This document shows positions 9,073-30,110 of a stretch of 64,000 nt of DNA, in pieces. The stretch's first letter is position 1, and each line of letters starts with the position of its first letter. Origin of the DNA: a virus (Duplodnaviria > Caudoviricetes); IMG/VR virus record IMGVR_UViG_3300048575_000392, positions 12,145 through 76,144 of that record. One strand, given 5' to 3'. The notes beneath the pieces were generated by a model. That model did no database searches and was not told the origin of the DNA. It worked only from the letters and a program-made list of their open reading frames with translations. The position numbers were made by a program, and so were the translations under genes.

Positions 9073-9689
9073 ACCGAGAGCTCCTCGTAGAAATGCGGTT
9101 GGGCCGTGCTTCCGGTTCGGACCACAGGGAAGCCGCGGCGGGAGAATCCGTCGACGACACCCTCGTGCTGCCCGACGCGCACGCGGGACCCCTTCTTGAG
9201 CTGGAGCATGGCCGTCTTCCGGTTGTTCAGCATCGCCACGGCCTTGTCGGTCTTCTCGTGATATTCCCGCTGGTAGTCGGCGGCGTTCTGGGGATGGTCC
9301 TTCATCATCTTGAGGTACCAGGCCGTCTGGTAGTCGACCTCGATGTCCTTCTCCTTCGTGTCCCGGTCGAATTGGTAGTTCTTGTACTTCGCCTCGATGC
9401 GCTTCGCGAGCTCGGGATCGTAGGCCGCCACATGGCCGACGAGGGGCTTGATCTGGTAGTCCTCCGCCACGCGGTCGAGGTGGTCGAAGTAGCCGCGGTC
9501 GCCGTTCTTGGACGGCCCGCCGGCGGCGGTCCCCGTGAAGAGGTTCGCCTGTCCCTTTAGATGCCCTTCGTTCCGGTCTTCAGGAGAGACCCAGTAGGTC
9601 ATAGAGCGCCCGTCGGCGCGGGTGATCTTCTCGGGCACGAGCCGACCGTACTCCTTCGATTTGGCCATCATGGGGATGCACAGCGTCAT
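9069..9689 (-). CDS. Hypothetical protein carrying the shared cargo N-terminal module and a C-terminal SH3/KOW-like segment
   Basis: IPMMAKSKEYGRLVPEKITRADGRSMTYWVSP matches the module in the polyvalent proteins. Confidence 0.6.
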   Translation of the reverse strand: MTLCIPMMAKSKEYGRLVPEKITRADGRSMTYWVSPEDRNEGHLKGQANLFTGTAAGGPSKNGDRGYFDHLDRVAEDYQIKPLVGHVAAYDPELAKRIEAKYKNYQFDRDTKEKDIEVDYQTAWYLKMMKDHPQNAADYQREYHEKTDKAVAMLNNRKTAMLQLKKGSRVRVGQHEGVVDGFSRRGFPVVRTGSTAQPHFYEELSV

Positions 9690-9690
9690 G

Positions 9691-10806: not shown

Positions 10807-10809
10807 GTC

Positions 10810-11247
10810 CTATGCCTTCTCGTAGCCGGGGACCTGGGCGAGGTAGTCGAAGTCGGCCCCCTCTACGGAGGCCACCCCCTTCTCGTCGAAGTCGATCGGC
10901 TGGCCGCTGGCCGCGAAGACGCGCTGGCCGGCCATGGCCTTGTTCTTGATCTTCCCGCTCGAGGCCTTCTTGGCGGCCGCGGGGGTCGTCTGGTCGGTGG
11001 CCGGCGTGGTGGCGGCGGCCTGGTCGTTCTGAACGGCAGCCTGAGCCTCTCCGCTCGCCGGGGCGCCGGTATCGGCCGCCTGATCCTGCCCCTCCGCGGG
11101 GGTCGTCTGGTCGGTGGCCGGCGTGGTGGCGGCGGCCTGGTCGTTCTGAACGGCAGCCTGAGCCTCTCCGCTCGCCGGGGCGCCGGTATCGGCCGCCTGA
11201 TCCTGCCCCTCCGCGGGGGTCGTCTGGTCGGTGGTTCCGCGTGCCAT
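10810..11247 (-). CDS. Low-complexity acidic Ala/Thr/Gln-rich protein (possible head decoration)
   Basis: 145 aa containing a 39-aa tandem repeat; GGAGG RBS. Confidence 0.55.
   Translation of the reverse strand: MARGTTDQTTPAEGQDQAADTGAPASGEAQAAVQNDQAAATTPATDQTTPAEGQDQAADTGAPASGEAQAAVQNDQAAATTPATDQTTPAAAKKASSGKIKNKAMAGQRVFAASGQPIDFDEKGVASVEGADFDYLAQVPGYEKA
10977..11234. repeat. Perfect 117-bp tandem repeat, about 2.2 copies, in frame
   Basis: CCGCGGGGGTCGTCTGGTCGGTGG recurs at 10977, 11094 and 11211, with identical sequence between copies. Confidence 0.9.
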
Positions 11248-11256
11248 GCGCGCCTC

Positions 11257-11451
11257 CTACAGCTTGTCCACCGCGGGGCTTGTCACCACGTTCGTGGCGT
11301 CGGCAGCGGTATGGGTTCCGGTCCCCATCGCGCAGTGCGCGTTGTGGTCCGTCTTCAGCTCGTTGACGAGGGTTATCGTCGCGTCCAGCCTCGTCGAGAG
11401 CGCTTTGAGAGCCGGGCAGGCCCGGCACATCTTGTCCTTCAGTTCGGGCAT
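11257..11451 (-). CDS. Small hypothetical virion protein
   Basis: 64 aa between the capsid gene and the repeat protein; AAGGA RBS. Confidence 0.55.
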   Translation of the reverse strand: MPELKDKMCRACPALKALSTRLDATITLVNELKTDHNAHCAMGTGTHTAADATNVVTSPAVDKL

Positions 11452-11476
11452 CCTTCTTCTCCTTGCCTTGAGGGAA

Positions 11477-11508: not shown

Positions 11509-12924
11509 TCAGTTGTAGAAGCCGTCGTTCGTGTAGCCGACGTTCTTCACGACGCCGTGGTACCACGGCACCTTCACATCCGGCGTGCCGAAGAGCACGA
11601 GGAGGAAGGGCGTGACCGCCGCGCGGGTCGGGTAGAGGTCGAACTTCATGAGCGGGAGGAACTGGTCGAACTGGACGCTCGGCTCCAGCGCGTCGTGGCT
11701 GAGGTACAGAATCTCGCCGGTACCCGGCAGGTCCTCGTTCTGGTCGAGCACGACAGTGGTCGCGGCGCCCGAGTCGCCGACGCGAACCATCTCCCGCACG
11801 TCGGTGCCGCTTCCGGCGTCCTTCTTCGAGCGGCAGATGATGTAGCCGGTTCCCTTCTTGGTACCGGGGGTGATCGTGATCTTCGCTTCCTTTCCGGCAG
11901 CGAGGGCGAGGGACGCGGCGGCCGCTCCCGCGGAGACGCCGTACTCGTTGATCGCGAAGACCTGGTAGTAGTAGGTCCCGGCCGACGTGGAGTCGAAGCC
12001 GCGGCCACCGCCGGCGGTGAGGTCCTGGGCCGCGAGGGCGAAGGTGGGGGCGTTGGGGCGCTTGGTGGCGTCGCCGGAGGCCGCGATCTTGCCCTTCACG
12101 TAGAACATCTTGTCGGGGCCCGCCTCCTTGCCGGCGATCTTGATGTCGCTGGAGAAGGTGGTCGGGTACTCCATCACGACCTGCGCGCCGCGGCGGTCGT
12201 CCGGGTTGAAGCGGAGCCTGTCCTTGGCGAGCTTCTGGAAGTCCTGGGCGATCATCGAGGGCATGAAGGCGTGGGAGAGGCTTCCTCCGTTCTCGAAGAC
12301 CTGGCGGGAAATCTCCGTGATGGAGTCCTCGCCGGCGGCGTCGGACATCTTGGCGCCGCGGAGGTCCACGAGGTTGCGGCGACTCGCGTTCGCCTTGATC
12401 TGCTTGCTCACGGAGTCGAACTGGACGGGTACGACCGCGCTGTCGGCCTGGAACAGGCCGTACTCGCAGCCCTTGAGGACGGTGAGCGTGCCGGCGACCT
12501 TCTCGGAGGCCATGGCGTCCTCGAGGGTCTTGGCGACCTGCATCTGGAGCGTGACCTCGCGGTAGGTCTGCATGTACTTCATGGGCCGGGTCACGCGCTC
12601 GAGGGCCTGACTGGAGTCCCCGGCGTCGCCGCCCTCGCTCGTGAAGATGTTCATGAACTCGCCGGCGTCGTTCCGGCGGGTGTACTCGTGGACGGTGGAG
12701 CCGACCTTGGGCTTCGAGAGGAGGTTCATGAGCTTGAAATCCTCCTGCTTGGCCGCGAGGGCGTTGACCATGGTCATCTCGATGTCCTGCGGAATGAGAG
12801 CGCGGCCGCCAGTCATGGCCGCAGAGTCGGTGCCGTATCCCGCGGAGAGCGCCTTCTGGAGCTCGCCCTCGGTGACGGAGCCGAACATGTACTCGCTGGC
12901 ATTGGTGGGTTCGAGGAAGTTCAT
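11509..12924 (-). CDS. Major capsid protein (SPO1/Twort-like type)
   Basis: 471 aa; N-terminal LQK|ALSAGYGTD resembles processed Herelleviridae-type capsid N-termini; directly follows the protease gene. Confidence 0.85.
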   Translation of the reverse strand: MNFLEPTNASEYMFGSVTEGELQKALSAGYGTDSAAMTGGRALIPQDIEMTMVNALAAKQEDFKLMNLLSKPKVGSTVHEYTRRNDAGEFMNIFTSEGGDAGDSSQALERVTRPMKYMQTYREVTLQMQVAKTLEDAMASEKVAGTLTVLKGCEYGLFQADSAVVPVQFDSVSKQIKANASRRNLVDLRGAKMSDAAGEDSITEISRQVFENGGSLSHAFMPSMIAQDFQKLAKDRLRFNPDDRRGAQVVMEYPTTFSSDIKIAGKEAGPDKMFYVKGKIAASGDATKRPNAPTFALAAQDLTAGGGRGFDSTSAGTYYYQVFAINEYGVSAGAAAASLALAAGKEAKITITPGTKKGTGYIICRSKKDAGSGTDVREMVRVGDSGAATTVVLDQNEDLPGTGEILYLSHDALEPSVQFDQFLPLMKFDLYPTRAAVTPFLLVLFGTPDVKVPWYHGVVKNVGYTNDGFYN

Positions 12925-12939: not shown

Positions 12940-14418
12940 TTACATGGACTTGATGAGACGGAGCGTGCCGTCGTTGAGGGGCATGCCCTTGTTGAGCCGC
13001 TCCTCGATGATGGCTGCGTCCTGCGCCGTCATCTTGCCGCTCTGGACGGCCTGCATGGACTTCTGGATGATCTCCTGACGGGTCATCGAGGTCTGCTTGC
13101 CGTCGGAGCCCACGAAACTGCGCTCCTGCTTGTTGACGACCGCCTGGCGGGGGGCCGGGGCATCGGCGAGGCTCTTCACGAGCTTGCCGGTGTTGACGAG
13201 GGCGCCTCCCATGGACTTCTGAAAGGCGACCATATCGCCCACGGACTTCTCGAGGGCGGACATCCGCCTGGAGATGCCCTTCGTGAGGTTGTCGAGGTAC
13301 GGCGTCACGTCGAGGAAGTCGGCGGACGACTCCCGCATCTCGTCGTACAGGGACTTCTGCATCCCCTTCTTGGGAGCCTTCGCGGGGGCCCTGGCAGGCT
13401 CCTCGTGGGTCTCCTCCTCGCCCTCGCCGTCGAGGTCGTCCTTGTCGTCGTTGGCTTCGACGGCCTCTTCCGGGGGAAGCTCGGGGAAGCCATTGTCGGT
13501 CTCCTCCTCGCCCTCGGCCTCAGCCTTGCCCTTCTTGGGCGGATTCTTCATGGACTTTTCGAGAGTCGCGATGGACTCGTCGAATGCCTTCTCGAGTTCG
13601 GGGTCTTTCATAAGAACCTCCTCCTTGAACTTGTCTTTCTTGGAAAGTACGTCGCTCAGAATTGCCTTCGCCTCTTCGGGCGAGCATCCACGGTTCTTCA
13701 AGAGCTGTTCGGCTTCGTCTTCATCGCTCACGTCTCCGTAGGCCATGGCCATGACAACGGCGTAAACATCGGGCTTGCGCCGCTTGCCGCCGTCCAAGTC
13801 GGACGGGATCATGGCCCGGCCTCCGGTCATCGCGGAGGAATCGGTTCCGAATCCCGCCTGAAGGGATTTCACGAACGCGGCGCTCGAGAGCGCCACGGGT
13901 TCGAGCGTTTGGTTGACCGGCTTGAAGGTGATCGCGAGCTCGTCCCACAGGACCTTCACGACCTTCTCGATCGCCTGGCCGATGCGAGAATCCCAGCCCG
14001 AGACCACCTCGGGCCGCTTGCCACCTACGGAGGTCTTCAGCCTCGTCGAGCCGTCCTTGAGCTTTTTCACGATCTCGCGGGCGATCGAGTTCGACTTGTA
14101 GAGCTTCGCCTTGACGAAAGTCCGGTCGCCCTCCGACCACACGTCGATGGGCTCTCCGATGATGTACTTTTCCGGGGACCAGTTCGGGTCCTCAGGGTCG
14201 GGGCGGAGGTGGCGATGGTCATAGGAGATGACGCCGTTCGCGAGGAAGTATTCCTTCGAGCCGAGAAGTGCACGCTGAAGCACGACCTGACCGTCGAAGT
14301 CCAGGTTCTCGTTCGACGCTTCGGCTTCGATGATCCAGTTGCCGTGTTCGTCGGTTTCGATGGCCTTCGACAGACTCAGTTCGAGGTAGACACGCTCTCC
14401 GAGCTCGATGTCGTCCAT
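12940..14418 (-). CDS. Prohead protease fused to acidic scaffold region
   Basis: Start re-called at MDDIELG (GGAG RBS); ASNENLDFDGQVV, ISYDH and SVGG protease-type motifs; acidic linker with many xKS sites. Confidence 0.8.
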   Translation of the reverse strand: MDDIELGERVYLELSLSKAIETDEHGNWIIEAEASNENLDFDGQVVLQRALLGSKEYFLANGVISYDHRHLRPDPEDPNWSPEKYIIGEPIDVWSEGDRTFVKAKLYKSNSIAREIVKKLKDGSTRLKTSVGGKRPEVVSGWDSRIGQAIEKVVKVLWDELAITFKPVNQTLEPVALSSAAFVKSLQAGFGTDSSAMTGGRAMIPSDLDGGKRRKPDVYAVVMAMAYGDVSDEDEAEQLLKNRGCSPEEAKAILSDVLSKKDKFKEEVLMKDPELEKAFDESIATLEKSMKNPPKKGKAEAEGEEETDNGFPELPPEEAVEANDDKDDLDGEGEEETHEEPARAPAKAPKKGMQKSLYDEMRESSADFLDVTPYLDNLTKGISRRMSALEKSVGDMVAFQKSMGGALVNTGKLVKSLADAPAPRQAVVNKQERSFVGSDGKQTSMTRQEIIQKSMQAVQSGKMTAQDAAIIEERLNKGMPLNDGTLRLIKSM

Positions 14419-14441
14419 GCGTCTCCATGGCGCGGAAAAAC

Positions 14442-14546
14442 AAAAAGGGCCGCACGCCCCGAAGGGTATGCGGCCCGAGTCTTTCGGCACCTACTACTGC
14501 TCTAAAATTACCGTATCAGAATGCTCCACGCAAGTGGGAAAGTCAA
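14442..14546 (-). promoter_or_regulatory. Promoter plus conserved leader box plus terminator hairpin upstream of the protease/capsid genes
   Basis: TTGACT(14546-14541)-N17-CATTCT, then AGTAGGTGCCGAAAGACTCG, then hairpin GGGCCGCA...TGCGGCCC and TTTTTG. Confidence 0.65.
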
Positions 14547-14767: not shown

Positions 14768-15066
14768 GCTTCCCTCCATTCGCCATGCTCGAGCCAGCCG
14801 TGCCAGGTGTGTTTCGCGGTCCACTCCGGCGGTGAATTCGGATAGCCACCACGGCCCCAGAAGATCGAGGGGCTAACCGTGATCGTGCCGTCTTCATGTT
14901 CGGTAACGCTCCACGTCGAGACATCGGCGGTCAAAAGGAAGCCGTCGTCGTCACGCGGCACTGGGGCGGCGACCTGCCAATGGCCGTCCTTGTCCTTCCA
15001 ATAGTTTCCGGGTTCAACGGGCGAGCTGGTGATATTTCCCGGATTCTCTATGCGTCGCCCCTTCAT
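14764..15066 (-). CDS. DUF6527-like small protein
   Basis: C-terminal 100 aa of track ORF 14764..15501; WSVTEHEDGTITVSPSI...WHGWLEHGEW; ATGA-coupled. Confidence 0.55.
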   Translation of the reverse strand: MKGRRIENPGNITSSPVEPGNYWKDKDGHWQVAAPVPRDDDGFLLTADVSTWSVTEHEDGTITVSPSIFWGRGGYPNSPPEWTAKHTWHGWLEHGEWREA

Positions 15067-18000
15067 GCGGCCTTCTCCTTGTCGATCCCCTGATTGTAAC
15101 GGTCCTGCCGAACGGCCGCGATCGTCGCCGCGAGGCCCGTGTCGTCGAGTACGCCGGGGTCCTCCTCGAAGATGCTCCCGATGGCTTTCTTGCGCTGGAT
15201 GCGCTCCCACTTCTTCTTCTCGTGTTCCGTGTCGGACACGATGTCGTGGTACTCGATCTCCTTGTGAGCCTGACCCATGCGGTCGATGCGGCCTTCGCGC
15301 TGTTGCTTCACCCACGAGGTCTGAGGCAGGTCGAAGTTCATGAGGTAGGCCGCGTTCTGAAGGTTGAGGCCCGTCGCGCCGGCATCCGAGCACAGGATGA
15401 TGTCGTAGATTCGGTCTTTCGGGTTCGGGGGGTTGAACCCTACCTTGACCTTCTCCTTCTCGGCTCCGTTCATGCTGCCCTGGATGATCCCGACCCGGCA
15501 TCCCTTCGCTTCGAGGGCGGCCCGGAGATTCTCCACGGTCTGGATGTTGTGGGCAAAGATGACACCGGGCTTCCGGTCGCCCGCTTGGCTTGCCGTCTTC
15601 GGGTTGGCCTCCTCGTAGACCTTCTTCTCGATGATGTCGACCGCCCGGCTGATCTTAGCGTTCTTCTTCCAGTCGAACTGGTTCACGACGCGGTTGAGCG
15701 CCTCCTCCTTGATCGTCCCGGAGGACTCCTGGAGGCGTCGCGCGATCTCCTCATGCTTCGCCTCGGGCTGATTCCTGAACGAGCTCGGGGAGAGCGCCCT
15801 CATGGCCTCCACGTCGACGGTGCCCGAGCGCTGCGCCTTGCTCGCGCGCTGGAACATCGTCTCGACGTTGGCGTACTCGGCCGCCTGCTCCCCGGTGAGG
15901 GGGACGATTTCCTTCTTGGAGACCTTCTTGACCCCAGTCACGGTGGGACTCGCATAGTTGTAGCGCGAGATGAGCCGCTGTAGGGACCGGCGAGCGAAGT
16001 CCGAATCGACCCCGTACCGCTTGATGAACTCGTTCCGGTCGTTGAATCGGTCCGGAGCTACCTTGTGGAGCATGTCGAAGGCCTCTGAAATGTCGTTCTT
16101 GACCGGCGTGGCGGTCTGGTTCATGAAGTACGTGACATTCTGGTTCAGAGCATCGATGACGTTCGAGAGCGTCGTGTCCTCTTTCCCCTTCCGGTTCGTC
16201 GTGTAGTGGGCCTCGTCCACGGTGAGCATGTCGAAGGCAATGCCCTCCTTCTTCAATGCCTCGCCAAGCAGGCGTTGACGCTCCTCGGGCGACTGGGCAT
16301 TGAAGTGAGCCTTCATCGCCTCCGGGTCCTTGTCGTTGTGCTTGGCCATAAGGTGCACCATATCGTCCCGGAGGGACTGGTGCGTGAAGACCACCATATC
16401 GAGCTTTCCGTCCTTCATGGCCTGGATGCGATCGTCTCGGGAGAGCGAGGGGTCCGACTTCACACGGTACTTTCCCGGCTCGCAGAAGACGTTCACCTCA
16501 TTGCCGAACTGCGAAAGAACGACCGAGGGAACCGCGAAGATCGCACGTTTCGCCTTTCCCTTCGACTTCAGCTCCGTGAAGGCGCCGATCGAGATGATCG
16601 TCTTCCCTTTTCCGGTCCCGAAGGTGAGGTTCATCCTCTTCGTCGCCTCGAACATCTTGATGGCGCGCTGGCGCTCGCCCTTCGCCTGCATCGTGGACAC
16701 GGCGTATCGCTGCCCGCGGAGCTGATTCCTAGACAGGTCGGGGATCATGGATGCGAGCTGGGTCTCCGCGCGCCTCCCGATCGAGAGAATCTCGGTTCCG
16801 TCGTCCTGCTTGAGGTCATCCCCGCCGAACATGTCGCCCTGGGCGGCCTCGGCGCGCTTCTTCTCCTCGATGTACTCCCCGAGCTTGTCTTTCCACGAGC
16901 CCGAGGCGAAGCGGCCGTTGGCCCGGTTCGCTAGCTCGCCTCCGGCCTCGCCCATCTCGCGCTTGAAGCGATCGGTGTAGGAGTCCCGGACATCCTTGTG
17001 GAGCATCCCGAGCACGTGATCCTGGGCGTTCCTGATCTTCTCGACCTTCGTGGCGAGCTTCTTCCCCGTCACCCTGCCGTAGTTTTTGATGAAGCGCTCT
17101 GTGAAATCCCCGCGGATGCGGTCGATGATGGCGGCCTGGGCCCGGTCGGTGTCTCCGTGCATCCGGGCATACTCACCCCAGGGACTCTTCTCCTGGCGGC
17201 TCTCTCCCGCGTTGAATTCCTCCTCGGTATGCCCGGACATCCACTTTAGGTAGTGGTCCTTCATCTGGCTCTGGTAGAGCTCTTCCAGCTTCCCAGGGAG
17301 CTCTCCCTCGAGCTTCTTCACCTCGCGCTCGGCCGCGGCCGCGTCCGTGACCATGGACGGGTCGCGCAGGTCGTCGATCGCGTCGAAGAGCTCACGGGCT
17401 CCGTCCACATTCGCCCGATACGTCGCCCAGTTGCCGGGTACGACTCGAGCCAGAGGGGGGATGTCCTTCTCGCCGAACATGTCTTCCGTCGAGTGGTTCT
17501 CGATGAGGTCCTGACGGATCGCCGCGAAGGCTGCCTCCTCGCTTCCCCCGTTCTCCCCCTTGAGGAACTTCGCCCAAGCCCCCTGCCGGGACGCCGCCTT
17601 GCCCGTCGCGAGGTTCTGCCCTGACGTGGCCTCGGCCATGCTCCCCTTGTAGATGTTCCGCTCCCAGTACCGTCGGAGGTCGGTCTGATCCTGCGGGGTA
17701 AGGTCTTCCAGGAGCTTGAAGGCAAAGGCCCCTTCGGGCATCTCGCCGAGAGTCCGGTGAACGGCCTCCTCGGTCTTGTGGATCGCCTCCGCGTCGTCCC
17801 CGAGGCTCTGGTTGTCCACGTCTCCTGCCGGGGTTTCGGTGTCGGGGCCGGGGTCGTCGAAGCTCTCGGCGTCGCGACGGACGAGGCCCGCCGGCAGCCA
17901 GTTCTCCTCGTCGCGCTCCCCGGCCTTGATGGCGTCGACTTCCTCCTCGATCTGGAGCTCCTCGGCGTCGACCGGGTGGATGAGCTTGTCGGGGGTCTTG

Positions 18001-20030: not shown

Positions 20031-23000
20031 CTCACGATCAGCTTTTTGCCGTGATTCGCCTTCTTGAAGGCCTCTTCCTTGAACGCCTCGATGCTCGTCT
20101 CATCCATCCGGCCGAAGAATCCGGGCCGGTCATACTGTTTCAAGTAGGCCGCCTTGGCCTCCTCGGGGCCGTCGAAGCCGAACATGATCTTGTCCTCGTC
20201 GTAGTCCCCGGTCACCGGGTCGTTCTGATGGACCACGAAGACCTTCTCCGACTCGGTATCGGGGCCGATGTAGCAGTCGAGGTGGTCCTTATCCTTCCCG
20301 ACGGTCCCTCGGATGTACCCGTAGTCGAAGTGCATCTTCGTTTCCCACTCGTGGCCGTCCTTGTCGACGCCGCGGCGGACGCTGCCCTTCCGGTTCTCGA
20401 TGCTGATGTCCATGCCCTGGAGCGTCGTCCTGCCCTGGAGCTTATGCCCGCTCCAGGTCTCGGCCTTCTCTAGGCGGAGAGCCTTGAGGAGCTCGTCGTC
20501 CTCAACGAAGAAACGCTCGACGAGGGGGAGGACCTTCGCCTCGTAGACCTCCTGCTTGGGATGATTCCCGCGCTTGTTCCAGGTTTCCTGGTATTCGGCC
20601 TGGGCTTCGCGCTTCGTGGCGAAGAACTGCTCGAGCGCGCGGGCGAAGCACTCGCAGGTACGGTTCTGGTAATCCGAGGTCTGGGCCGTGGCCATGTTCG
20701 AGCGGAACGTCCGCGCGATCTGGCCGGGGAGCGAGGACCAATCGTCCGAGGCGTAAAAGTGGCGCCCTCCCCGCGTGCCGAGGTAGTTGTCCATGAAGTG
20801 CGCCCACTCGTGCGCGAGCGTGAACCCGAAGCCGGTTTCGCCGTTCTGCATGGTGACGCCGATCGCATGATGGGCAGGAAAGTAGACGCCGGCCGCGTTC
20901 CGGGCGTGCATGAGCACCTTCCCGGAGTGGCTCACCTTGAGGCCGAAGCCTTTGGCCATGGAGGAGCGGTTCCCATAGATGCTGTATACCGCGTCCAGGG
21001 CGGTCTTGATGTCCTGGATCTCCTTCGTGTTGATCGCGTCGCCATTCTGGCGCTTCACGAGCACGCCGTACTCGTCCAGGAGGTCCTTCCTCGTCCCCTT
21101 GTCGCCGTAGGCCGTCTCCTGCCCCTTGGCATAGGCGGAATAGTTCTCCTCGATCTGGATGTTCATGTCGGAGAGCTTCTGCTTCATGTCGACGACGGCC
21201 TCTCGGATAGGCTTCCACCTCGCCGAGCCCTGCACGTCGAGAAGGGCGGAGGCCATGGAAAGCGTCGTCCTCATGGCCTTGTTCTCTCCGAGCATCCTCA
21301 CGGAGGTCTTCTTGAGCCTCATGCCGGAATAGAGCTTCGCCTGCTTTTCGTCGTACTCCTTCGCTCGGACCTTCGCCCGCTTCAGGTAGTAGTCCTGCAT
21401 CGCAGCCAGGACATCGACCCCGACTCGGGCGTAAAGCACGCCCAAGGAAGCCTTCCCGTCGCCAAGGCGCACCATGTAGTCGCCGTCGCCGAGCTTCACG
21501 GCCTCGACGCGGTTCCCCGAGCTGTCGAAGTACCTGTCGTCGATTCGGGGTATCCAGCCAGGCGCGGGCTTCCCCAGAATATCCTTCTCGGAGGCGAGGC
21601 TGATCTTGACGGGGATCGCATCCCGGAAGTCGAGGTACTCCACCTTGTCGCCCTTCACGCGCCGCGGCTCGAAGGTGTAGGGCTCCGGAGGCCGCTCCTC
21701 CAGCTTCGCGCCGAAGAGCTGGGCCTCGGTGGCGGCCCGCGTCTCGGGCGAGGCCTTGGCCATGAGGGCGGCCACTTTGTCGGGTTCCCTCTCAGGGATA
21801 ATCTCCTTGATGTCCTCGGGCTTCACGGCGAGCATCTCCCTGTCCGCGAGGACGTGGGACACGCCGCCGGCGAAGTAGCTGATCTTCCCGATGGCCTTCT
21901 TACCGTTCTTCCCCTTGAACGACACCTTGGCGCCGTTCTTGAGCTGGGCGAGGAGCTTCTGGCGCCAGAGGGCCTCCTCGACCTCCGCCTCGGCGAACAT
22001 GTCGAACTGCACCCCGAGGGGGGTGTCTTTCTTGGCCTCCGCGGGAAGGACCCACACGGTCGTCTCGAAGCGCGTCCCGTCCCTCGTCACGAAGACCTTC
22101 TTCGGTACCAGCTTCGGGTTCCTGCGCGATTTCTCCAGCATGGGGATGATGAAAAGGGCCTTCCTGAGCGACTCCGACTCTTGCAAGTCGCTATTAGCGG
22201 CGGTATACTCTGAGGTGGAGGGTCTGGAAATGCCTAACATCGAATCCAAAGACATGGACTTCTTCGAGCGCGAGGACGTGCCCTTCGCCCGCGACAACGC
22301 CTCCCGGAAGTGCTTCCGCGTCTTCTCCGACAGCTCCTTGAAGGAATCCCCGATCACCCTCGCCGACTTGATGGTGAACGGCCGCGCGATCTCGAAGGAC
22401 GAGGCCCTGCGGTTGGCGAAAGCCTCCGGAGACTGACTCGCCGCCCACGCTTCCTGATACAGCGCTATCTGTGCGCCCCCGACCAATCGAGTGATCTTGT
22501 CGTTCTTCGGCTCATCCTTCAGCTCCCGCCACACCTCATAGAACACGTGCCCTTCGCTCTTGGCCTCGGCCATCGCCTTCGTGGTGAGCTGGACCTCGGA
22601 TATCATCCCATTCGGTAGCTTCACGTTCATGTTGATGTCACGGTACCCGACCGGCGAAGGCGTGGCGAAGTTGTTCTTCAGTCTCATCACCCGCGGGTCC
22701 GCCATGAAGAACTCCACGGCGGCCGCCATGGATTCCAGCCCGTCGAATATCAGGGTATGGCCGTCGAAGTCGTAGACCTGGGAGGCGTCGGGGGCGCAGT
22801 CCTCGCGCATCTTCTCCTCAACGCGGCCGCGGTCCTTCAGCTTGTCCCGAGACTGCACTTCGAGGGCCCCGAGCTTCTTCGCGGCCTCTTCGACGGAGGC
22901 CTTGAACCCCGCCCTGGCGTCCTCCGCGAGGCGGTAGAGCTCCTCGATATCCTTGGAGGGCTGCACGAGGTTCTTCTTGTCGATTCTCTTCTGGTAGTCC

Positions 23001-23872
23001 GGGTCGAGAAGATGCTCCACCTGTTCCGATGAATGCCGAGGGGAGGAGGCCTCTTCGCCCGCCGGCCGCCGCGGGGTGGCCTCCTCGTCTCCAGGGCGGA
23101 CGTAGCGCATCTGCTTGACGATGGCCCCGTCCTTTCGATGCACGTCGACGGCCCGCCGGACCAAGCGGGAGAGGTCACGCGCTTTCGCGAGGATAGGAAC
23201 CGCGAGGAGCGCCGACATCGCCTTCTTGAGTCCGAGCCTCTTCGCCGATTCGATGGCCGCCGGCTCGTCAACCAGGCCAGCCTCGATGAGCTTCTTGTAG
23301 TAGTCGGGATCTTCCTTGAGGTGGTCCTCGGCGATCTTGCGGGCCTCCGCGCGGCCTTCGTGGTGCTCCATCTCGACCTTGATACCCACAGCCAGCTCGG
23401 GGTTATGGGTTTCGGCTACACCGAGGAGCTCCTTTTCCGTCAAAAGGCCCGCCGAGGATACTGCCTTCCACACGGGGCTCGATTTCTGAATGACGAGCTT
23501 CTTCGCGACTTCCCTGCGCTCCGTCCTGGCCTGGGGCCGAACCTCGTCGAACTTGGAAATGATCGCGAGCTTCCCGTCCTTGAGCCCTACGCCGAGGACT
23601 ACTCCGCGCTGCCAGTCGCCACCGGCCTCGAAGTAGGCGATGTCCTTCCCGTAGCGGATAAGCTCGCAGTTCTCGAGGTCGAGCCCCTGAGGGAATCCAT
23701 CCAGGTCTTTCAGCTTGCTCTTGTTGCCGTAGATGTCGATCTTCCCATCTTCCCCCGCGAACAGCTTCATGAAGGCCGCGTAGAATCGGCTATCCAGTCC
23801 TCCCTCGGGGATCGATTTCGCTACGAGGCTCTCCTCGTTGTCGGTGTTCTTCCTGATATACAATCCGGGCAT
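20027..23872 (-). CDS. Large polyvalent protein: DUF5661-like, RelA/SpoT-type synthetase, KOW-like, zincin/LPD1-like and inorganic pyrophosphatase domains
   Basis: GIKVEMEH...DHLKEDPDYY; LKDRGRVEEK/DFDG/GYRDINMNV/EVQL/GHVFYE; AHEWAH and ECFARALEQ; YGYIRGTVGKDKDHLDCYIG...YDEDKIMFGF. Confidence 0.8.
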   Translation of the reverse strand: MPGLYIRKNTDNEESLVAKSIPEGGLDSRFYAAFMKLFAGEDGKIDIYGNKSKLKDLDGFPQGLDLENCELIRYGKDIAYFEAGGDWQRGVVLGVGLKDGKLAIISKFDEVRPQARTERREVAKKLVIQKSSPVWKAVSSAGLLTEKELLGVAETHNPELAVGIKVEMEHHEGRAEARKIAEDHLKEDPDYYKKLIEAGLVDEPAAIESAKRLGLKKAMSALLAVPILAKARDLSRLVRRAVDVHRKDGAIVKQMRYVRPGDEEATPRRPAGEEASSPRHSSEQVEHLLDPDYQKRIDKKNLVQPSKDIEELYRLAEDARAGFKASVEEAAKKLGALEVQSRDKLKDRGRVEEKMREDCAPDASQVYDFDGHTLIFDGLESMAAAVEFFMADPRVMRLKNNFATPSPVGYRDINMNVKLPNGMISEVQLTTKAMAEAKSEGHVFYEVWRELKDEPKNDKITRLVGGAQIALYQEAWAASQSPEAFANRRASSFEIARPFTIKSARVIGDSFKELSEKTRKHFREALSRAKGTSSRSKKSMSLDSMLGISRPSTSEYTAANSDLQESESLRKALFIIPMLEKSRRNPKLVPKKVFVTRDGTRFETTVWVLPAEAKKDTPLGVQFDMFAEAEVEEALWRQKLLAQLKNGAKVSFKGKNGKKAIGKISYFAGGVSHVLADREMLAVKPEDIKEIIPEREPDKVAALMAKASPETRAATEAQLFGAKLEERPPEPYTFEPRRVKGDKVEYLDFRDAIPVKISLASEKDILGKPAPGWIPRIDDRYFDSSGNRVEAVKLGDGDYMVRLGDGKASLGVLYARVGVDVLAAMQDYYLKRAKVRAKEYDEKQAKLYSGMRLKKTSVRMLGENKAMRTTLSMASALLDVQGSARWKPIREAVVDMKQKLSDMNIQIEENYSAYAKGQETAYGDKGTRKDLLDEYGVLVKRQNGDAINTKEIQDIKTALDAVYSIYGNRSSMAKGFGLKVSHSGKVLMHARNAAGVYFPAHHAIGVTMQNGETGFGFTLAHEWAHFMDNYLGTRGGRHFYASDDWSSLPGQIARTFRSNMATAQTSDYQNRTCECFARALEQFFATKREAQAEYQETWNKRGNHPKQEVYEAKVLPLVERFFVEDDELLKALRLEKAETWSGHKLQGRTTLQGMDISIENRKGSVRRGVDKDGHEWETKMHFDYGYIRGTVGKDKDHLDCYIGPDTESEKVFVVHQNDPVTGDYDEDKIMFGFDGPEEAKAAYLKQYDRPGFFGRMDETSIEAFKEEAFKKANHGKKLIVR
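22181..22209 (+). promoter_or_regulatory. Near-consensus sigma70 promoter inside the polyvalent gene, on the antisense strand
   Basis: TTGCAA(22181-22186)-N17-TATACT(22204-22209), followed by GAGGTGGAGG RBS at 22212-22221. Confidence 0.75.
22230..22436 (+). CDS. Nested antisense 68-aa protein, candidate immunity/antitoxin for the RelA/SpoT domain
   Basis: MPNIESKDMDFFEREDVPFARDNASRKCFRVFSDSSLKESPITLADLMVNGRAISKDEALRLAKASGD; own promoter and RBS; GC3-rich phage-like codons. Confidence 0.72.
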   Translation: MPNIESKDMDFFEREDVPFARDNASRKCFRVFSDSSLKESPITLADLMVNGRAISKDEALRLAKASGD

Positions 23873-23942: not shown

Positions 23943-24326
23943 TCAGAATCCCGCGTTCTCGTCGAAAAGCGTATAGGAATGGTCGACCCCCTCAGGATCG
24001 GTCCAGGAATGGTCGCTGACGTAGGCCTCTTGGCGGCCGTGGTAGTAGACCCCGGCCAGTACCGACCTGAAGAGGTCGCCGTGCCAGGCCCGCTCCTTCA
24101 TGAGCTCATCGCTGTAGGGGCCCATGAACCACGCCGACTTGTCGGGGTAGAACTGCCGTAGTGCATCCTTCACGGCCCACCAGTAGACCCCGAAGCTCTT
24201 GTAGATGCGGCGGTTCTTCTTCAGCATGTCCCCGATGCTGAGGGCGATCTGCTTCAGGTACTCGTCACCGCCCGGAACGCGGAGCTTGTTGACGAGGCCA
24301 TCCACGAATTCATTGTCGTAGAACAT
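23943..24326 (-). CDS. Hypothetical protein (YKSFGVYWWAVKDAL motif) following the DarB-like gene
   Basis: 127 aa, GGAGG RBS, typical codon usage. Confidence 0.65.
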   Translation of the reverse strand: MFYDNEFVDGLVNKLRVPGGDEYLKQIALSIGDMLKKNRRIYKSFGVYWWAVKDALRQFYPDKSAWFMGPYSDELMKERAWHGDLFRSVLAGVYYHGRQEAYVSDHSWTDPEGVDHSYTLFDENAGF

Positions 24327-24329: not shown

Positions 24330-27300
24330 TCAGCCCTCCTTTCTCATTATACCCAGTCGCGGACCATTCCGGTAGATCATGCGCATCGACTTCTCGACCT
24401 GCGGGCGCTTCCTGAACGCATAGCCCGCCCTTCCGCCGTAGGCGCGGTTGTACTCGACCTCGTAGTCCGGGTTCATCTCGATGATGTCGTGGAGCTCATA
24501 GGCCGAGGCCCCGCGGACCCCGCGGCGCTTCATACGCTCCACGATGTCTTCCACGGGCTTCCAATAGGTCGAGGCCATGGAGTCGATATACTCGGCCTCC
24601 TTGTGGGCCCGGTAGGCCTTCATGGCCGGCTCCTTGAGCGCCTCGGCGATGCCTGTCTGCTCGAAGACCGGATCGTTGATCGCGCCGCCATCCGCCTCAG
24701 CCTCGCCCGAGCGCACGGCCGCGACGATCCGCGCCCGGTCCTCAGCGACATAGGGGTTGAGCGCCTCCTTGATGTCTTTCTCGGAGAAGGACCATCCCTT
24801 CGAGGCGATCTCAACCTTCCCCTCGGCGTTGACCTTGCAGTACCGGGTCTCCCGGTCGGGCGAGAGCCGGAGCATATCCCGATAGCGGTCCCGCTTGAAG
24901 GCTTCCGCCTGGCCGGCGAAGTCCGCCGGGGCATAGAGAGACTTGAGGCCGGACAGGTCTTCCTTTGTCGGGCTCGCTACGTGCGTCCAGTGCTCCCCGC
25001 CGCCCTGCTTCCACTCGACCCAATCGGAAGTCCACCCGCTCCCCTCCTGGGAAGCGGGCTTCAGGAGCATCGTCTGCTTCTTGTGGTTGATGGTCATGGC
25101 GACGAAGGGGCCGCTCCTCATCATGAACACGTCGCCCGGCTTGTAGACCCGACGCTCCGCCTTGTCGTAGATGAAGTCGGGCGGGTTGTCCTTGAGGAGC
25201 TCGAGATTCTGAAATTCCGGGTTGCCTCTGAGGGCCTCTTCCATGTTGTAGAGCTTCCGGAGGCGGTTCTGGTACTGGACGGTGCCCTTGTCCCCCTCGA
25301 AGCCGCGGATCGAGCCCCGCATGAGGCTGAGGGCCGCGAGCGTCTCGTGGACCTTCTGGGCGTTCGCCTCCTTGATCTTGCCGGTCTTGATCTTCTCCAT
25401 CTCCGCGCGCCGCTCGTTGGCCTTCTCCTTGTCGCCCCACTCTTCGGTGAGGGCGAGGAGGAGCTCGTCGGGATCTACGAAGGAGTCGTCGTTCGGGTTG
25501 GTGAAGACGTTGGACTTGGTGCGGAGAAGCTGGTCGATCCAGTTCGCCTTGTTCTGTACGAGGTTGACGGAGTAATTGTCGATCGTCCCCGCGGTGAGGT
25601 AGGTGTTGAGCGCCACGGATGCCTGCCTGTTCCCCTGGCGGTCGATACGGCCGTTCCTCTGGATGAAGTCCGACGGGCGGTAGGGGATGTCGAAGTGGTG
25701 AAGGGCAGCGCTGTTGTCCTGGAGGTTCACACCCTCGCCGAGGGTCGGCGTCGTCCCTATGATTACCTTGTACTTCCCCGCGTTGAAGCCATCGATCGCC
25801 GCCGACACCTCCTTCTCGAGCGCCGTGTCGCTCTTCTTCCCGCCGGCCTTCGTGATGCCGTTCACCACGACGATCTCGGAGTCCTTGAATCCCTGTGCGA
25901 CGAGGGCGGCCTTGATCTTGTCGTGCATGTTGAAAGAGCCGTCGCCTGAGAGGACGCGGTCGCAGAATACGACCTGCCCGCCTCCCGTCGCCTTGAAGCT
26001 CTCCATGGCGTTCTCAGCGAGCTTCGACAGCTTCGGGTTCTTCCACCCAGCGTACTTCGAGGGGTTGTAGAGCTCGAGGTCGAGCGAGGCCGTCCGCATC
26101 CGCGAGTAGAAGGTGAGGAAGCTCTGGCCGGGGTACTTCTCGGCCTTTTCGTCGTTCCCCAGGGCCTTGAATTCCTCGAGCTGGGCCGAGAGATCGCGAA
26201 GCACGCCCGTCTGGTCTTCCTGCATGGGGATGACGTTCGGGTTGTTGTTGGCCTTCGGCTTCGGGAGGCCGATCTTCGTGGGATCGTTCTGGAGGTCGGT
26301 GTACTTGAAGAACATGTCCTGGAGGGTCCGCAGGTTCTTGAATCCCTTGAGTACCTTCGCGTCTATGGTCTTGCCCGTGCCCCAGTCGCACTTCGGCTGC
26401 ACCTCTATATCGGCGAAATTCCGGATGAAGTCGTCGATCGTCCTTATGTTCAGGCGGTCGAGCTCCTCCGGCGCGACGTGCATGAGCATGTTGTAGTATT
26501 CGAGCGGGCTGTTCGTGAGCGGCGTGGCGGTGAGAAGGAAGACGTTCTTGCCGTCATGCCCCCGCCGGATGAACTCGCTCTTCTTGAACAGGCTCATGGC
26601 GCGGTCCGAGCGCCGACCGTCGTTCATCCCCGTATCGCGGGAGAGGCTCGAGCTGAAGAGGTTCTTGTAGTTGTGGGCCTCGTCCACGAACAGGGCATCG
26701 CAACCGAAGTCCTCGAAGTTGATGGTCTGGTTCGTCTTCCCGGCTTCGAGCTTCCCGCGAGCCGTCTCCTTGGCCTGCTCGATCTTTCGGGAGCTCTTCG
26801 CGGCCGCCTTGTCCATGATCTGGCCGGCTACGATGTCGTCGGTGATGCGCTGGTCCTCCTCGGGCCTAAGCTGTATCTCGGAGGCCGCGGACTCGGGAAG
26901 GACGATCACGTCGAAGTCCCCGTTCGCGAGCTCCTGGTACATCTTGTAGCGCTTCACCTGGTTCGAGTATCCCTCCGTCTCGGGGTCCACGGCGCCCACC
27001 TTGAGGCCGGGCATGGCCTTGGCGATCTCCTTGATCCAGTCCTTCACCTTGTTGTTCGGGACCTGGACCATGGGCCGCTTGATCTTCCCCTCCTGCCGGA
27101 GGAGCCCGATCAGGCCGATCGCGGCAAGGGTCTTCCCGAAGCCCGTCCCGAGCGCCGTGATGCCCTTCCCGGCCCGGTAGAGGTGGTGGATGGACTGCCA
27201 TTGATGCCCGCCCAGGACGATCTTGGGGCTCCATCCGTCGATTCTCACGGCGTAGGTCTTCGTCGGAGCCCCGATCTCCGCGTTGAACTTCCGGTTGTAG

Positions 27301-30110
27301 AGCTCTTCGAGCTGCTTCCGGACCTCGGGGTTGTTCGACACCCAGTTCTTGAAGTTGTCCTCGGCGTTCCGGTTGAAGGTCTCGGTGTCGATCCGGCTCG
27401 AGCGCTGCTTCTGCATGTTGAGGAAGTAGACGAGCTCGTGGTTGTAGTCCTGCCAGTCCCCGGCCGCGATGGTATGCCCCGCCTCGCGCCAGTTCTTTCC
27501 TCGGACGTACTTGTCCTCGTCGTAGACGACGCCCCACTTCCCCTCCTCATTCCTCGCGAGGTGGAACTCACCGAAGGCGTACCCGAAGTCCATGCCGTTG
27601 CCGTCGCGGGCCCACTGGTCGATGAGCTCCTCAGGAATCCACGAGGACTGGGGCGTGAACTCCGCTTCCTCGATCGGGACCCATCCGACAGCCTTCTCCA
27701 GCTCGTCCACGCCATGCTGCCACTTCTCCCGCGCGGCCGCGAACTTCTCGCCGGGGTGCTTATCTATCGCCTTGCGGAGGGCGTCAACCTTGTCCCAGGC
27801 GTTCCCCGCGATGAAGTCTTCCCGAAGCTGCCAGGCCCCCTCGGGCGTCAGAAAGGCATCGGCGCACTCCTGAAGGGAGGCCTTGAGCCCCTCGAAGTCA
27901 TTCGGGAAGTAGGCGCGGAGCTGCTTCGGCGTGGCCTCGATCATGTTCCTCTGGAGGGTGAGGAGGGCCGTGACCGCCGGATTGTGCCCGTCGACGATCT
28001 CGATCTCCTTCGCATAGACGTTCTGCTTCGTGAGGAGGTCGTCGTCTATACCCACGAGGCCCTCGTAAACGCCCGCCAGAGCCGCATTGGCGTTGAGGAC
28101 CTTCCGGATATCCTTGTCTTCCCGCGGCGCCACGCCATAGGCCTCCTCGTAGGCCTGGAGGAGGCGCCGGGCCTCTCTCTGGAGATCGTCGACGGGTTCG
28201 TCGGCCCTCATGGCGTCCCGGATGCCTTTGACGGCCTCGGCTATCGCCTTGACGCGCTCGAGCTTCTCGGCCGCCACCTCGTCGGCGCCCTTCACGCGCT
28301 CCCATCGATGGTTCGCGTTCAGGCGGTAGACCCGGCCGTCCTCGCTCTTCGTCGCCCCCACGGTCAGGGTCTTGGCCGCGACGGCCTCCGCCTCTCCCTC
28401 CGTGAGCGCGAGCTCGTCGCCTTTCTTCTTTGGCGCCGCCGCGCCGCCCTTCGTCATGGAGCGCAGCCTGTCGAGGTCCTCCACCGTCATGTCCGCCTCG
28501 GGCTCGAAGCGGGACGCGGCCGCGTCCATGTCGGCGAGCGAGAGCTCCCCCTCTACCACGTCCCGGCCCCAGTTTCCGGCGCCCTCCGCGAGTGCGCCAA
28601 GGATGTGCTCGGGCTTCACTTTGTAGTAGGAGCCCTCGACCCATGCCTCATTCCAGAACCCGGCGGCCTTGAGACCTTTCTCGTCGAGCTGGGCGAGGCG
28701 CTGGCGCGTCTCCTCGGGGTACTTCCGGAAAAAGATGATATCCGGCTGTACGCCGGTCTGCGTATGCTTGAAGGAGCCGTTCGGGAGCCTCGCGGCGCCC
28801 ATGAACTGCCCCTTCTTGAGCATCTCGGCCCGCCAGTCCCGGTTCCCCTTGCCATCCATCACGCCGGGATGGACGATCAGCGCCATGGACCCGCCGTCGG
28901 CAAGTGCGTCCAGGGAGCGGGAGAGGAAGTAGCGGTCGAGACTCTTCTCCTCGGGCATGTCCATGAAGGAGGTGAGGACCGACCGATCGCCGAACGGGGC
29001 ATTCCCGACCACGCGCGAGAACTGGCGCTCGTTGTAGAGGTTGAACTGCTCGAAGCTCCCGGAATGGATCGCTGCGCCCTCCTGGAGGATCGAGGCGGCC
29101 GCGGCCGTCCTCTTGTCGAGCTCCACGCCGTGAAGATCCAGCCCTTCCGGGGCGACCTCGAAGAAAACGCCTGTCCCGCACGAGGGTTCAAGGACCGACT
29201 CGCCGGCCGCGATCGGGGCTATCTTGTCGAGCATCTTCCACGTCATCTTCGCCACTGGAGGGGAGGTGAAGAAGTCGTAGAGGACTCCGCGCTCGTCGTC
29301 CGCCTTCACGCCGCCGAAGCCCGAGTACCTCCGGACCTTCTCGACATCCTCGGCCGAAAGCTCATCGCGCGGCTTAAGGAGGAGCTCGGCGACCTCCTGA
29401 TTGAGCTTCGCCCTCGCCGCGGGGTTTAGGTGCTTTCCCTTATTTCCCCATGATCCGTAGTCCCTGAACGGGGTCTCCTTGATGGAGAGCGACAGGTCAC
29501 GCCGCTTCGTGTCCTCCGGGGAGGCTTCCTTTTCAGCCTTCTTGCGCTCCACGAGGTCCCCGAGCTTCCGCGCGAGGGAGTCAACGCGGGCCTGCTTCTT
29601 ATCCCCCGCGGCTTTCCGCTCCTTCAGCTTCGTCTCGCCAGCGGTCCCCGTGATGGCGTAGAAGGTCGCCCGTCCGTTGTTCCAGGCGAAGGCCTCGCCG
29701 GCGGCTACCTTGGCCTCCATGTAGCGCTTGGCCGCCGGCCCGCTTGTCTCGAAGCACTTCGTCACATCGGCCGAACTGAGTACGAGGTCCCCGTGGTCCT
29801 TCTTCCACTCCTGGAACTTGCCGTCCAGCTTGGAGCTCGCCGCCTTGACTGCCGGCGTCGGAGTCTTGGGCTTCTCGATGCCGAGCTTCGGCTCCTCCGC
29901 CGCGGGGGCGCCGCCATCGAAGAGGTCGAACTGGGCCGCCCGAGGCTTCTCCGCCTTGGCCTCGCTGGGGAGGACCCATACGCGCTTTCGGTAGGTGGTC
30001 CCGTCCTTGTTCGTGAGCGTGATGTCTCTCTGTACGAGGCGGGCGCTTCTCCTCGCCTTCTCGAGCGCGTCCTGCGCCGGTATCAGGATGAATCGCTGAA
30101 AAATGTTCAT
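24330..30110 (-). CDS. DarB-like polyvalent protein: N6-adenine methyltransferase plus SNF2 helicase
   Basis: Start re-called at MNIFQRF (ATGA overlap with MuF), 1926 aa; VLEPSCGTG and GNAPF methylase motifs; GTGFGKT, FVDEAH, LTATP and QRNGRIDRQG helicase motifs. Confidence 0.85.
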   Translation of the reverse strand: MNIFQRFILIPAQDALEKARRSARLVQRDITLTNKDGTTYRKRVWVLPSEAKAEKPRAAQFDLFDGGAPAAEEPKLGIEKPKTPTPAVKAASSKLDGKFQEWKKDHGDLVLSSADVTKCFETSGPAAKRYMEAKVAAGEAFAWNNGRATFYAITGTAGETKLKERKAAGDKKQARVDSLARKLGDLVERKKAEKEASPEDTKRRDLSLSIKETPFRDYGSWGNKGKHLNPAARAKLNQEVAELLLKPRDELSAEDVEKVRRYSGFGGVKADDERGVLYDFFTSPPVAKMTWKMLDKIAPIAAGESVLEPSCGTGVFFEVAPEGLDLHGVELDKRTAAAASILQEGAAIHSGSFEQFNLYNERQFSRVVGNAPFGDRSVLTSFMDMPEEKSLDRYFLSRSLDALADGGSMALIVHPGVMDGKGNRDWRAEMLKKGQFMGAARLPNGSFKHTQTGVQPDIIFFRKYPEETRQRLAQLDEKGLKAAGFWNEAWVEGSYYKVKPEHILGALAEGAGNWGRDVVEGELSLADMDAAASRFEPEADMTVEDLDRLRSMTKGGAAAPKKKGDELALTEGEAEAVAAKTLTVGATKSEDGRVYRLNANHRWERVKGADEVAAEKLERVKAIAEAVKGIRDAMRADEPVDDLQREARRLLQAYEEAYGVAPREDKDIRKVLNANAALAGVYEGLVGIDDDLLTKQNVYAKEIEIVDGHNPAVTALLTLQRNMIEATPKQLRAYFPNDFEGLKASLQECADAFLTPEGAWQLREDFIAGNAWDKVDALRKAIDKHPGEKFAAAREKWQHGVDELEKAVGWVPIEEAEFTPQSSWIPEELIDQWARDGNGMDFGYAFGEFHLARNEEGKWGVVYDEDKYVRGKNWREAGHTIAAGDWQDYNHELVYFLNMQKQRSSRIDTETFNRNAEDNFKNWVSNNPEVRKQLEELYNRKFNAEIGAPTKTYAVRIDGWSPKIVLGGHQWQSIHHLYRAGKGITALGTGFGKTLAAIGLIGLLRQEGKIKRPMVQVPNNKVKDWIKEIAKAMPGLKVGAVDPETEGYSNQVKRYKMYQELANGDFDVIVLPESAASEIQLRPEEDQRITDDIVAGQIMDKAAAKSSRKIEQAKETARGKLEAGKTNQTINFEDFGCDALFVDEAHNYKNLFSSSLSRDTGMNDGRRSDRAMSLFKKSEFIRRGHDGKNVFLLTATPLTNSPLEYYNMLMHVAPEELDRLNIRTIDDFIRNFADIEVQPKCDWGTGKTIDAKVLKGFKNLRTLQDMFFKYTDLQNDPTKIGLPKPKANNNPNVIPMQEDQTGVLRDLSAQLEEFKALGNDEKAEKYPGQSFLTFYSRMRTASLDLELYNPSKYAGWKNPKLSKLAENAMESFKATGGGQVVFCDRVLSGDGSFNMHDKIKAALVAQGFKDSEIVVVNGITKAGGKKSDTALEKEVSAAIDGFNAGKYKVIIGTTPTLGEGVNLQDNSAALHHFDIPYRPSDFIQRNGRIDRQGNRQASVALNTYLTAGTIDNYSVNLVQNKANWIDQLLRTKSNVFTNPNDDSFVDPDELLLALTEEWGDKEKANERRAEMEKIKTGKIKEANAQKVHETLAALSLMRGSIRGFEGDKGTVQYQNRLRKLYNMEEALRGNPEFQNLELLKDNPPDFIYDKAERRVYKPGDVFMMRSGPFVAMTINHKKQTMLLKPASQEGSGWTSDWVEWKQGGGEHWTHVASPTKEDLSGLKSLYAPADFAGQAEAFKRDRYRDMLRLSPDRETRYCKVNAEGKVEIASKGWSFSEKDIKEALNPYVAEDRARIVAAVRSGEAEADGGAINDPVFEQTGIAEALKEPAMKAYRAHKEAEYIDSMASTYWKPVEDIVERMKRRGVRGASAYELHDIIEMNPDYEVEYNRAYGGRAGYAFRKRPQVEKSMRMIYRNGPRLGIMRKEG

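Follow-up and report, generated by a model that had tools for sequence, protein, structure and literature searches.

T4 is the only phage in which the selection of large enzymes for packaging into the head is understood in detail; for P1 it is understood in part. A 64-kb stretch of DNA (hereafter the window; IMG/VR record IMGVR_UViG_3300048575_000392, positions 12,145 to 76,144) belongs to a 76-kb phage genome and holds a module of about 60 residues that recurs in presumed head cargo, namely at the N-terminus of a DarB-like protein, twice inside a polyvalent protein of 1281 aa (p1281) and at the N-terminus of a protein of 206 aa (p206). The initial annotation had proposed that the prohead protease cuts the giant proteins into separate effectors, each with its own packaging or ejection tag. 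On the strength of sequence comparison we propose, with moderate confidence, that the module serves capsid-packed proteins as a portable leader cassette in phages that combine an SPO1/Twort-type major capsid protein (MCP) with an HK97-like prohead protease. The principle of a leader on head cargo and its processing by the prohead protease is known; what would be new is a widespread, uncatalogued and portable cassette with a retained hairpin and a clamp-like peptide.

Four Copies of the Module

Exactly four homologous copies were detected in the 76-kb genome, aligning over ~60 residues with pairwise protein identities of 30–42%. They are located on the minus strand where the initial annotation had placed them, at residues 10–48 of the DarB-like protein, 225–260 and 575–610 of p1281 and 5–36 of p206; the full extent of each copy is given in Table 1. 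Leave-one-out profiles regained the omitted copy at E = 3e-14, 1e-6, 2e-14 and 3e-5 among 1521 six-frame pieces of the whole genome, and these pieces contained no fifth copy below E = 0.1. The same genome profile search found no copy in p1655, a 1655-aa helicase of the head block.

The cassette runs from a hydrophobic leader of 5–20 residues (often of the form h-h-h-P, where h is hydrophobic) through an h-x-Lys↓Ala/Ser site (the arrow marking the predicted cut) to a basic stretch with a beta-hairpin and sometimes a peptide Q-x-D-L-F, which lies 11–12 residues beyond the hairpin in ~40% of copies. The leaders of the DarB-like protein, p1281 and p206 are 10–18 residues long. In the AlphaFold models of p206 and of the unit of p1281 that carries a zincin-like domain, the leader is disordered and the hairpin is of moderate-to-good confidence and docked on nothing; the two strands of p206 span residues 18–23 and 29–34, with a pLDDT of about 80–89. 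A Foldseek search with the p206 model gave no significant match, the hairpin being too small for fold assignment. The module is also absent from Pfam (four module segments, no match at E up to 5), an ESM Atlas feature search with it gave no usable match, and a tblastn search of 50,697 phage records with one module copy returned nothing, so that full-length distant carriers had to be used in its place.

Distribution and Conservation

The four-copy profile matched 112 clusters at E < 1e-3 among 1.84 billion representative proteins, two of which (P0021 and P0108) were discarded as unrelated repeat proteins. The clusters include Bacillus, Bordetella and spirochaete-associated phages, and the carriers hold domains typical of polyvalent proteins (InPase, DUF5661, LPD1, ART-PolyVal, Zeta toxin, MuF_C, RelA/SpoT, SNF2 and N6 methylase). 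Bacillus phage CP-51, for instance, carries the module on gp27, gp28 and gp30, adjoining the portal. Seventy-nine of the 145 module instances start within the first 25 residues; in 68 the cut-site Lys is among the first 40 residues, with a median position of ~15, while the remaining instances are repeated two or three times within proteins of 900–2200 residues.

The consensus consists of a hydrophobic run, often ended by Pro, followed by [LIM]-x-K-[AS], then a basic segment, L-V and a hairpin in which V, R, G, an aromatic residue, T, W-V and P are conserved, the hairpin pattern being L-V-x-K-x-V-x-V-x-R-x-G-K ... W-V-x-P. In the aligned instances the Lys column holds K in 117 of 118, A or S follows it in 112 of 118, and the P3 position of the cut site is occupied by L, I or M in 95 of 97. 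Leader hydropathy is +0.72 on the Kyte-Doolittle scale, against a background of -0.70. A different lineage (L018, positions 1-14894) presents six hairpin copies in five genes between the portal gene and that of a protease from a different PHROG family; several of these copies follow R-E-G rather than K-[AS].

Among 83 phage contigs sampled via shared cargo domains, the module tracks the SPO1/Twort capsid family and a motif-rich scaffold (6/11 vs. 2/72 contigs, p = 3e-5), an association drawn from loci that are not phylogenetically independent and whose flanks end at 10 kb.

The Cut-Site Motif and the Head Protease

Bare K[SA] occurs at counts near those expected in most proteins and is uninformative; the motif was sharpened to [LMIVF]-x-K-[SA], hereafter h-x-K-[SA], and observed and expected counts were compared for each protein. 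The fused protease-scaffold protein has 12 sites vs. 2.0 expected (p < 0.002) and p1281 has 11 vs. 4.9 (p = 0.014), while no excess was found in tail proteins. The scaffold excess recurs in three relatives (10–12 sites vs. ~2 expected), in Bacillus phage CP-51 (11 vs. 1.1) and in Bordetella phage PHB04 (7 vs. 0.7). An N-terminal site is present in 6 of 13 head-block open reading frames (ORFs) vs. 5 of 61 others (Fisher p = 0.003, with crude gene calls), and in 8 of 13 after two start-codon corrections; the portal, the MuF-like protein, the DarB-like protein, p1281, p1655, the MCP and p206 each have a site in their first 30 residues. The individual sites that had been pointed out initially all exist: LVAK↓S (p1281, 16–20), LEK↓A (DarB-like, 16–19, and p1281, 1134–1137), LQK↓A (MCP, 22–25) and VEK↓S (DarB-like, 1905–1908), together with those of the portal (14–17), the MuF-like protein (26–29) and the scaffold (12 in number).

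The MCPs of six lineages (the window's own group, CP-51, PHB04, L009, L020 and L067) have one site at residues 20–60, followed by a conserved A/S-L/F stretch. The initial annotation mentions a Lys↓Ser cut of the A511 capsid; here the PDB pair 5lii/9row was used as the test of the capsid cut. Chain 9row_B (439 aa), from the mature capsid of a Staphylococcus relative, is identical to 5lii_P (463 aa) without the 24 N-terminal residues and starts at the Ser after VVK24, a start that aligns with K24↓A25 of the MCP. As 9row_B begins after the aligned Lys, the deposited mature chain starts where the model predicts. When only the capsid N-terminus was searched against the PDB, the result was not informative. 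The MCP matches the major head protein family phrog_752 (2.6e-53) and the protease matches the head maturation protease family phrog_1028 (1.7e-16), with SPO1 Gp6.1 and the 5lii capsid protein as PDB relatives; the protease domain had no match in Pfam at E up to 5. The protease gene stands beside the scaffold and an SPO1/Twort-family capsid gene, as would be expected for an HK97-like prohead protease of Lys↓Ser/Ala specificity. This evidence supports a head protease of the SPO1/Twort family that cuts after Lys and before Ser or Ala, and h-x-K-[SA] behaves as the signature of that enzyme.

Three further observations concern such sites. The protease-scaffold protein holds, at 13789-13884 (minus strand), a copy of ~32 residues of the capsid N-terminal cut region that is conserved in relatives, with F-V-K↓S followed by a G-T-D-S...T-G-G-R-A stretch as in capsid residues 20–50; it may act as a decoy or, as an internal substrate, bring the protease into position. 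The conserved site near the C-terminus of the DarB-like protein (Table 1) suggests that a short tail could be removed there too. Finally, the three conserved sites of p1655 are followed by a different hairpin, R-W-I-T-V-H-P-N-G ... P-V-L-I (19716-19973, minus strand), and the helicase of PHB04 shares the hairpin of p1655, directly after its own K↓A; this hairpin may represent a second type of cargo leader.

Unit Borders in p1281

Five IMG/VR contigs (L001–L005) are syntenic with the window and there the parts of p1281 are separate genes. In one of them, a 650-aa gene covers p1281 residues 19–221, a 555-aa gene covers residues 571–1133, with the module at its start and its end 3 residues past the equivalent of LLK1130↓A, and a third gene has its own module at the start and the equivalent Lys-Ser site directly before the InPase domain. 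The point of copy 3 is the N-terminus of separate genes of 555–724 aa in relatives. K1130 is present without exception in 27 homologues, both where the chain ends at this point and where it continues, and further architectures comprise the unit alone, the unit with InPase, and DUF5661 with the unit and InPase; source names of the homologues of the zincin unit include Rectinema and Leptospira. Six of the 11 motif sites of p1281 lie at most 10 residues from the three gene-fission borders (binomial p = 5e-6), a test that is not wholly independent, as two of the three borders contain the module itself. This supports a placement of h-x-K-[SA] sites at points where the genes of relatives are split.

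One cassette stands at the start of each autonomous unit, namely the DarB-like protein, p206 and, within p1281, the middle unit and the zincin unit. These data support the module being a real, mobile cassette that marks the start of autonomous cargo units. A second recurrent type of junction, G-x-F-D-P-x-x-P-x-I-x-K-[AS], is found at the end of some domains, immediately ahead of another unit or module (L004, 11617-12840; P0024, P0110 and P0014).

The shuffling, fusion and splitting of units among relatives, with the module as the exact break point, would also be expected if the similarity were a by-product of recent duplication or of domain-shuffling recombination joints, with no function of its own. 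We rejected the module as a mere joint, and consider this explanation very improbable, because copies with 30–42% protein identity are too diverged for DNA joints; moreover, the same columns are kept in more than 100 clusters from Bacillus, Bordetella and spirochaete-associated phages.

p1281 itself also contains a candidate peptidase. Residues ~900–1130 hold HExxH and a downstream Glu, and the corresponding model, the C-terminal half of the unit 566–1132, adopts a zincin-like fold with weak Foldseek matches to gluzincin peptidases. Embedded metallopeptidases of this type have been proposed to process polyvalent proteins (PMC5512222), and CP-51 gp28 has HExxH as well. Polyvalent proteins might hence be processed by their own zincin-like enzyme, or stay unprocessed, with the module being a conserved inter-domain linker. 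We regard this as quite improbable. The capsid matures at this motif and scaffolds show a 5- to 10-fold enrichment of it, capsid and scaffold being substrates of the prohead protease, and N-terminal sites occur without a zincin in the same chain in the DarB-like protein, p206, the portal, the MuF-like protein and the PHB04 cargo, whose genes carry such leaders and lack HExxH. Since the same motif is found in scaffold, capsid and zincin-free cargo, an embedded zincin cannot explain these sites, and a linker alone would not occupy the extreme N-terminus in 68 proteins.

A Model for Loading and Processing

According to the leader-cassette model, precursor cargo proteins would enter the prohead, where the prohead protease, which would also trim the capsid protein and shred the scaffold, would cut them at h-x-K-[SA] sites. 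This would remove the N-terminal leaders and split p1281 into units, and each mature unit would start with the basic hairpin, for which holding the cargo in the head or on DNA, guiding its ejection and docking on a host factor are candidate tasks. The initial annotation had cited the capsid-targeting sequence (CTS) of T4 as a precedent. In that form the proposal is not supported: the predicted cut is near the start of the module, and therefore the hairpin and Q-x-D-L-F, which lie C-terminal to it, would remain on the mature protein, unlike a removed T4-type peptide. Only the hydrophobic leader of 5–20 residues upstream of the predicted cut would correspond to a CTS-like element. As for protease-cut cargo polyproteins, the proposal gains from the mobile cassette, the Lys↓Ser/Ala protease and the sites at gene-fission borders, although plain x-K-[SA] is too common to serve as its signature.

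Several points, besides the limits of the contig comparison given above, weigh against the model. The motif is not enriched in the DarB-like protein (8 vs. 5.9 expected) or in p1655 as a whole, and several internal sites of both, conserved inside folded helicase domains, are probably structural. K-A might also be conserved as part of a short helix that the AlphaFold model places just after it. Approximately 19% of the module instances are without K[SA], such as the R-E-G-L-V-P type in L018, and p1281 does have a peptidase of the type proposed for polyvalent proteins. As about one-fifth of the instances keep the hairpin without K-[AS], the hairpin has a function of its own.

Should the model be correct, a cassette common to more than 100 cargo families would amount to a concrete, testable code for loading and processing. 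It would allow the mature injected proteins to be predicted from sequence alone, would correct the view of polyvalent proteins as processed mainly by an embedded peptidase and could be of general use as a tag by which foreign proteins are loaded into phage capsids.

The Tail Peptide

Three of the four copies are followed by a short peptide (QFDLF, QFDMF and QANLF), as the initial annotation had noticed. Across instances its consensus is Q-[FLAY]-D-[LM]-F and its distance from the hairpin is 11–12 residues in 34 of 47 cases. Such fixed spacing suggests that hairpin and peptide would act as one unit. The flanks of the peptide drift while the five residues stay, at times in tandem copies.

The bacterial beta-clamp-binding motif is Q-L-[SD]-L-F, with QLDLF as the optimal peptide (PMC11139829). 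All three peptides of the window fit the clamp pattern Q-φ-x-[LM]-[FL], with Phe or Ala at position 2 and in a segment of low model confidence. In the coding frames of the whole 76-kb genome this pattern occurs three times, always at module tails; the carrier proteins (75.8 kb) contain 56 occurrences, and 46 of the 145 module instances carry one. The DarB of Bordetella phage PHB04 has QLALF directly after K↓A and QGSLF after the hairpin. These matches raise a different explanation, in which the cassette is mainly host-directed: Q-x-D-L-F would dock on the host DnaN after injection, the basic hairpin would bind DNA or the clamp surface, and K-[AS] would be secondary. Anti-restriction and other effector enzymes would in that case be tethered to DNA, which is compatible with processing by the protease. 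The fit of the three peptides, an overall consensus that adjoins the optimal QLDLF, the restriction of the pattern to the three module tails in the genome, the predominance of module tails among the 56 occurrences in carriers, the conserved five residues between variable flanks and the two PHB04 peptides all speak for this explanation. We nevertheless consider it unlikely. Only ~40% of the instances carry the peptide, which is missing from copy 2 and from the Bacillus-phage instances; the fixed spacing resembles a structural unit more than it does a free linear motif; Phe is frequent at position 2, whereas known partners prefer an aliphatic residue; and the Dar proteins of P1 are without such a motif.

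Clamp docking can also be joined to the leader-cassette model. The hairpin and Q-x-D-L-F, exposed at a new N-terminus by the head protease, would then dock injected enzymes on the host beta sliding clamp or on the entering DNA. This combination is rather unlikely in our estimation, and we treat clamp docking as a lead and not as a finding. If it were true, one portable tag of ~60 residues would specify how virion cargo is loaded, released and targeted within the cell, and a functional clamp-like peptide would give injected phage proteins a new route to their place in the cell.

Genomic Context

The genome has ~62% G+C and nearly all genes of the window are on the minus strand. In minus-strand order, the head block comprises terminase, portal, MuF-like protein, DarB-like protein, Ulx-like protein, p1281, p1655, protease-scaffold and MCP, with p206 following later (Table 1). 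No family match for p206 was found in Pfam or PHROGs. The true start of the protease-scaffold is likely Met25, at 14418. The start of the DarB-like protein is not the longest-ORF start at 30239 but the ATG at 30110; its homologues begin at the same Met. The stop codon of the MuF-like gene and this start codon overlap as ATGA (30107-30110), which suggests translational coupling of the two genes. On the 3' side of the capsid gene, a 145-aa protein (10810-11247, minus strand) consists mostly of two tandem repeats of ~47 residues rich in Ala, Gln, Thr and Asp; it may be a decoration or spacer protein.

Table 1. Positions in the window of head-block genes, module copies and individual cut sites (predicted cuts are marked by an arrow).
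Feature	Position	Strand	Remarks
Portal	31401-33143	-	h-x-K-[SA] site at residues 14–17
MuF-like minor head protein	30107-31390	-	h-x-K-[SA] site at residues 26–29
DarB-like cargo protein, 1926 aa, N6 methyltransferase and SNF2 helicase	24330..30110	-	Pfam and PHROGs
Module copy 1, DarB-like N-terminus, residues 1–64	29919..30110	-	Leader 1–15, predicted cut K18↓A19, hairpin 25–48, QFDLF 60–64
DarB-like C-terminal site VEK1907↓S, 19 residues before the end	24387..24398	-	V/M-E-K-[SA] conserved in three relatives
Ulx-like anti-restriction protein, flanked by the two giant cargo genes	23943..24326	-	PHROG match
p1281, polyvalent cargo protein: DUF5661, RelA/SpoT-like, zincin-like HExxH, InPase	20027..23872	-	Pfam/PHROGs; zincin fold from model and Foldseek
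p1281 N-terminal site LVAK19↓S20	23813..23827	-	Conserved in L002
Module copy 2, inside p1281, residues 215–260	23093..23230	-	Predicted cut K230↓A231, hairpin 237–260, without Q-x-D-L-F tail; E = 1e-6 when omitted
Module copy 3, inside p1281, residues 566–626	21995..22177	-	Predicted cut K581↓S582, hairpin 588–610, QFDMF 622–626
Paired junction in p1281, from zincin unit to InPase: LLK1130↓A and LEK1136↓A	20462..20491	-	
p1655, 1655-aa helicase in head block	15063..20030	-	Three conserved sites in first 60 residues; different hairpin
Prohead protease fused to scaffold	12940..14490	-	PHROG head maturation protease; 12 h-x-K-[SA] sites in scaffold part
MCP, SPO1/Twort type	11509..12924	-	Single site LQK24↓A25
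p206, 206 aa, module at start; rest helical with small C-terminal beta domain	9069..9689	-	AlphaFold model
Module copy 4, p206 N-terminus, residues 1–51	9537..9689	-	Predicted cut K10↓S11, hairpin 17–36, QANLF 47–51

Comparison with Known Systems

In T4, the CTS of the internal proteins IPI-III and of Alt is removed by the prohead protease gp21, an enzyme that trims the capsid protein and breaks down the scaffold as well. The likeness lies in a short N-terminal leader (here 10–18 residues) on head-block cargo, ending at the motif by which the phage's own prohead protease would cut capsid and scaffold. There is no sequence relation to the CTS, no Glu-specific site of the gp21 type and no apparent similarity to T4, since the cut is predicted at Lys↓Ala/Ser here and falls after Glu in T4. 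The cassette is also much longer, its most conserved part lies after the predicted cut and it is reused inside polyproteins. The resemblance is an analogy of mechanism and not membership.

In P1, the N-terminal 30 residues of DarB form a capsid localization signal that is sufficient for loading, and no consensus among the Dar N-termini was found by the authors of that study (PMC9024508). As in P1, genes for a DarB-type methylase-helicase and an adjacent Ulx-like protein (by PHROG) are located near the portal, and Bordetella phage PHB04 has the same gene order. The capsid protein of P1, in contrast, is cut at Glu↓Ser, and here one cassette is common to several cargo units and many phages. The module profile had no match in P1 DarB, DarA, DdrA, DdrB or Ulx, and no localization signal of the P1 type was found. 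In the giant phages phiKZ and SPN3US, the prohead protease acts during maturation on many proteins inside the head, including propeptide-bearing ejection and inner-body proteins, and cuts them at a short motif that they have in common (PMC10052503; PMC7411985); protease motif and capsid lineage are different there, and no hairpin cassette of ~60 residues has been reported.

With beta-clamp-binding motifs (PMC11139829) the tail peptide agrees in four of the five consensus positions, while here the predicted peptide stands at a fixed distance from a hairpin in presumed virion cargo. Finally, polyvalent proteins, as described by Iyer, Burroughs, Anand, de Souza and Aravind in 2017, were predicted to be packaged and were proposed to be processed by embedded metallopeptidases, and that work names no such leader cassette (PMC5512222). 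Both p1281 and the DarB-like protein carry at least two unrelated effector domains per chain and are encoded among head genes, between MuF and protease, and they share with polyvalent proteins the giant multi-effector build and the InPase, RelA/SpoT, zincin and DarB-like modules. What sets the proteins of the window apart is that their junctions carry the motif of the prohead protease together with a conserved hairpin module that is not in Pfam.

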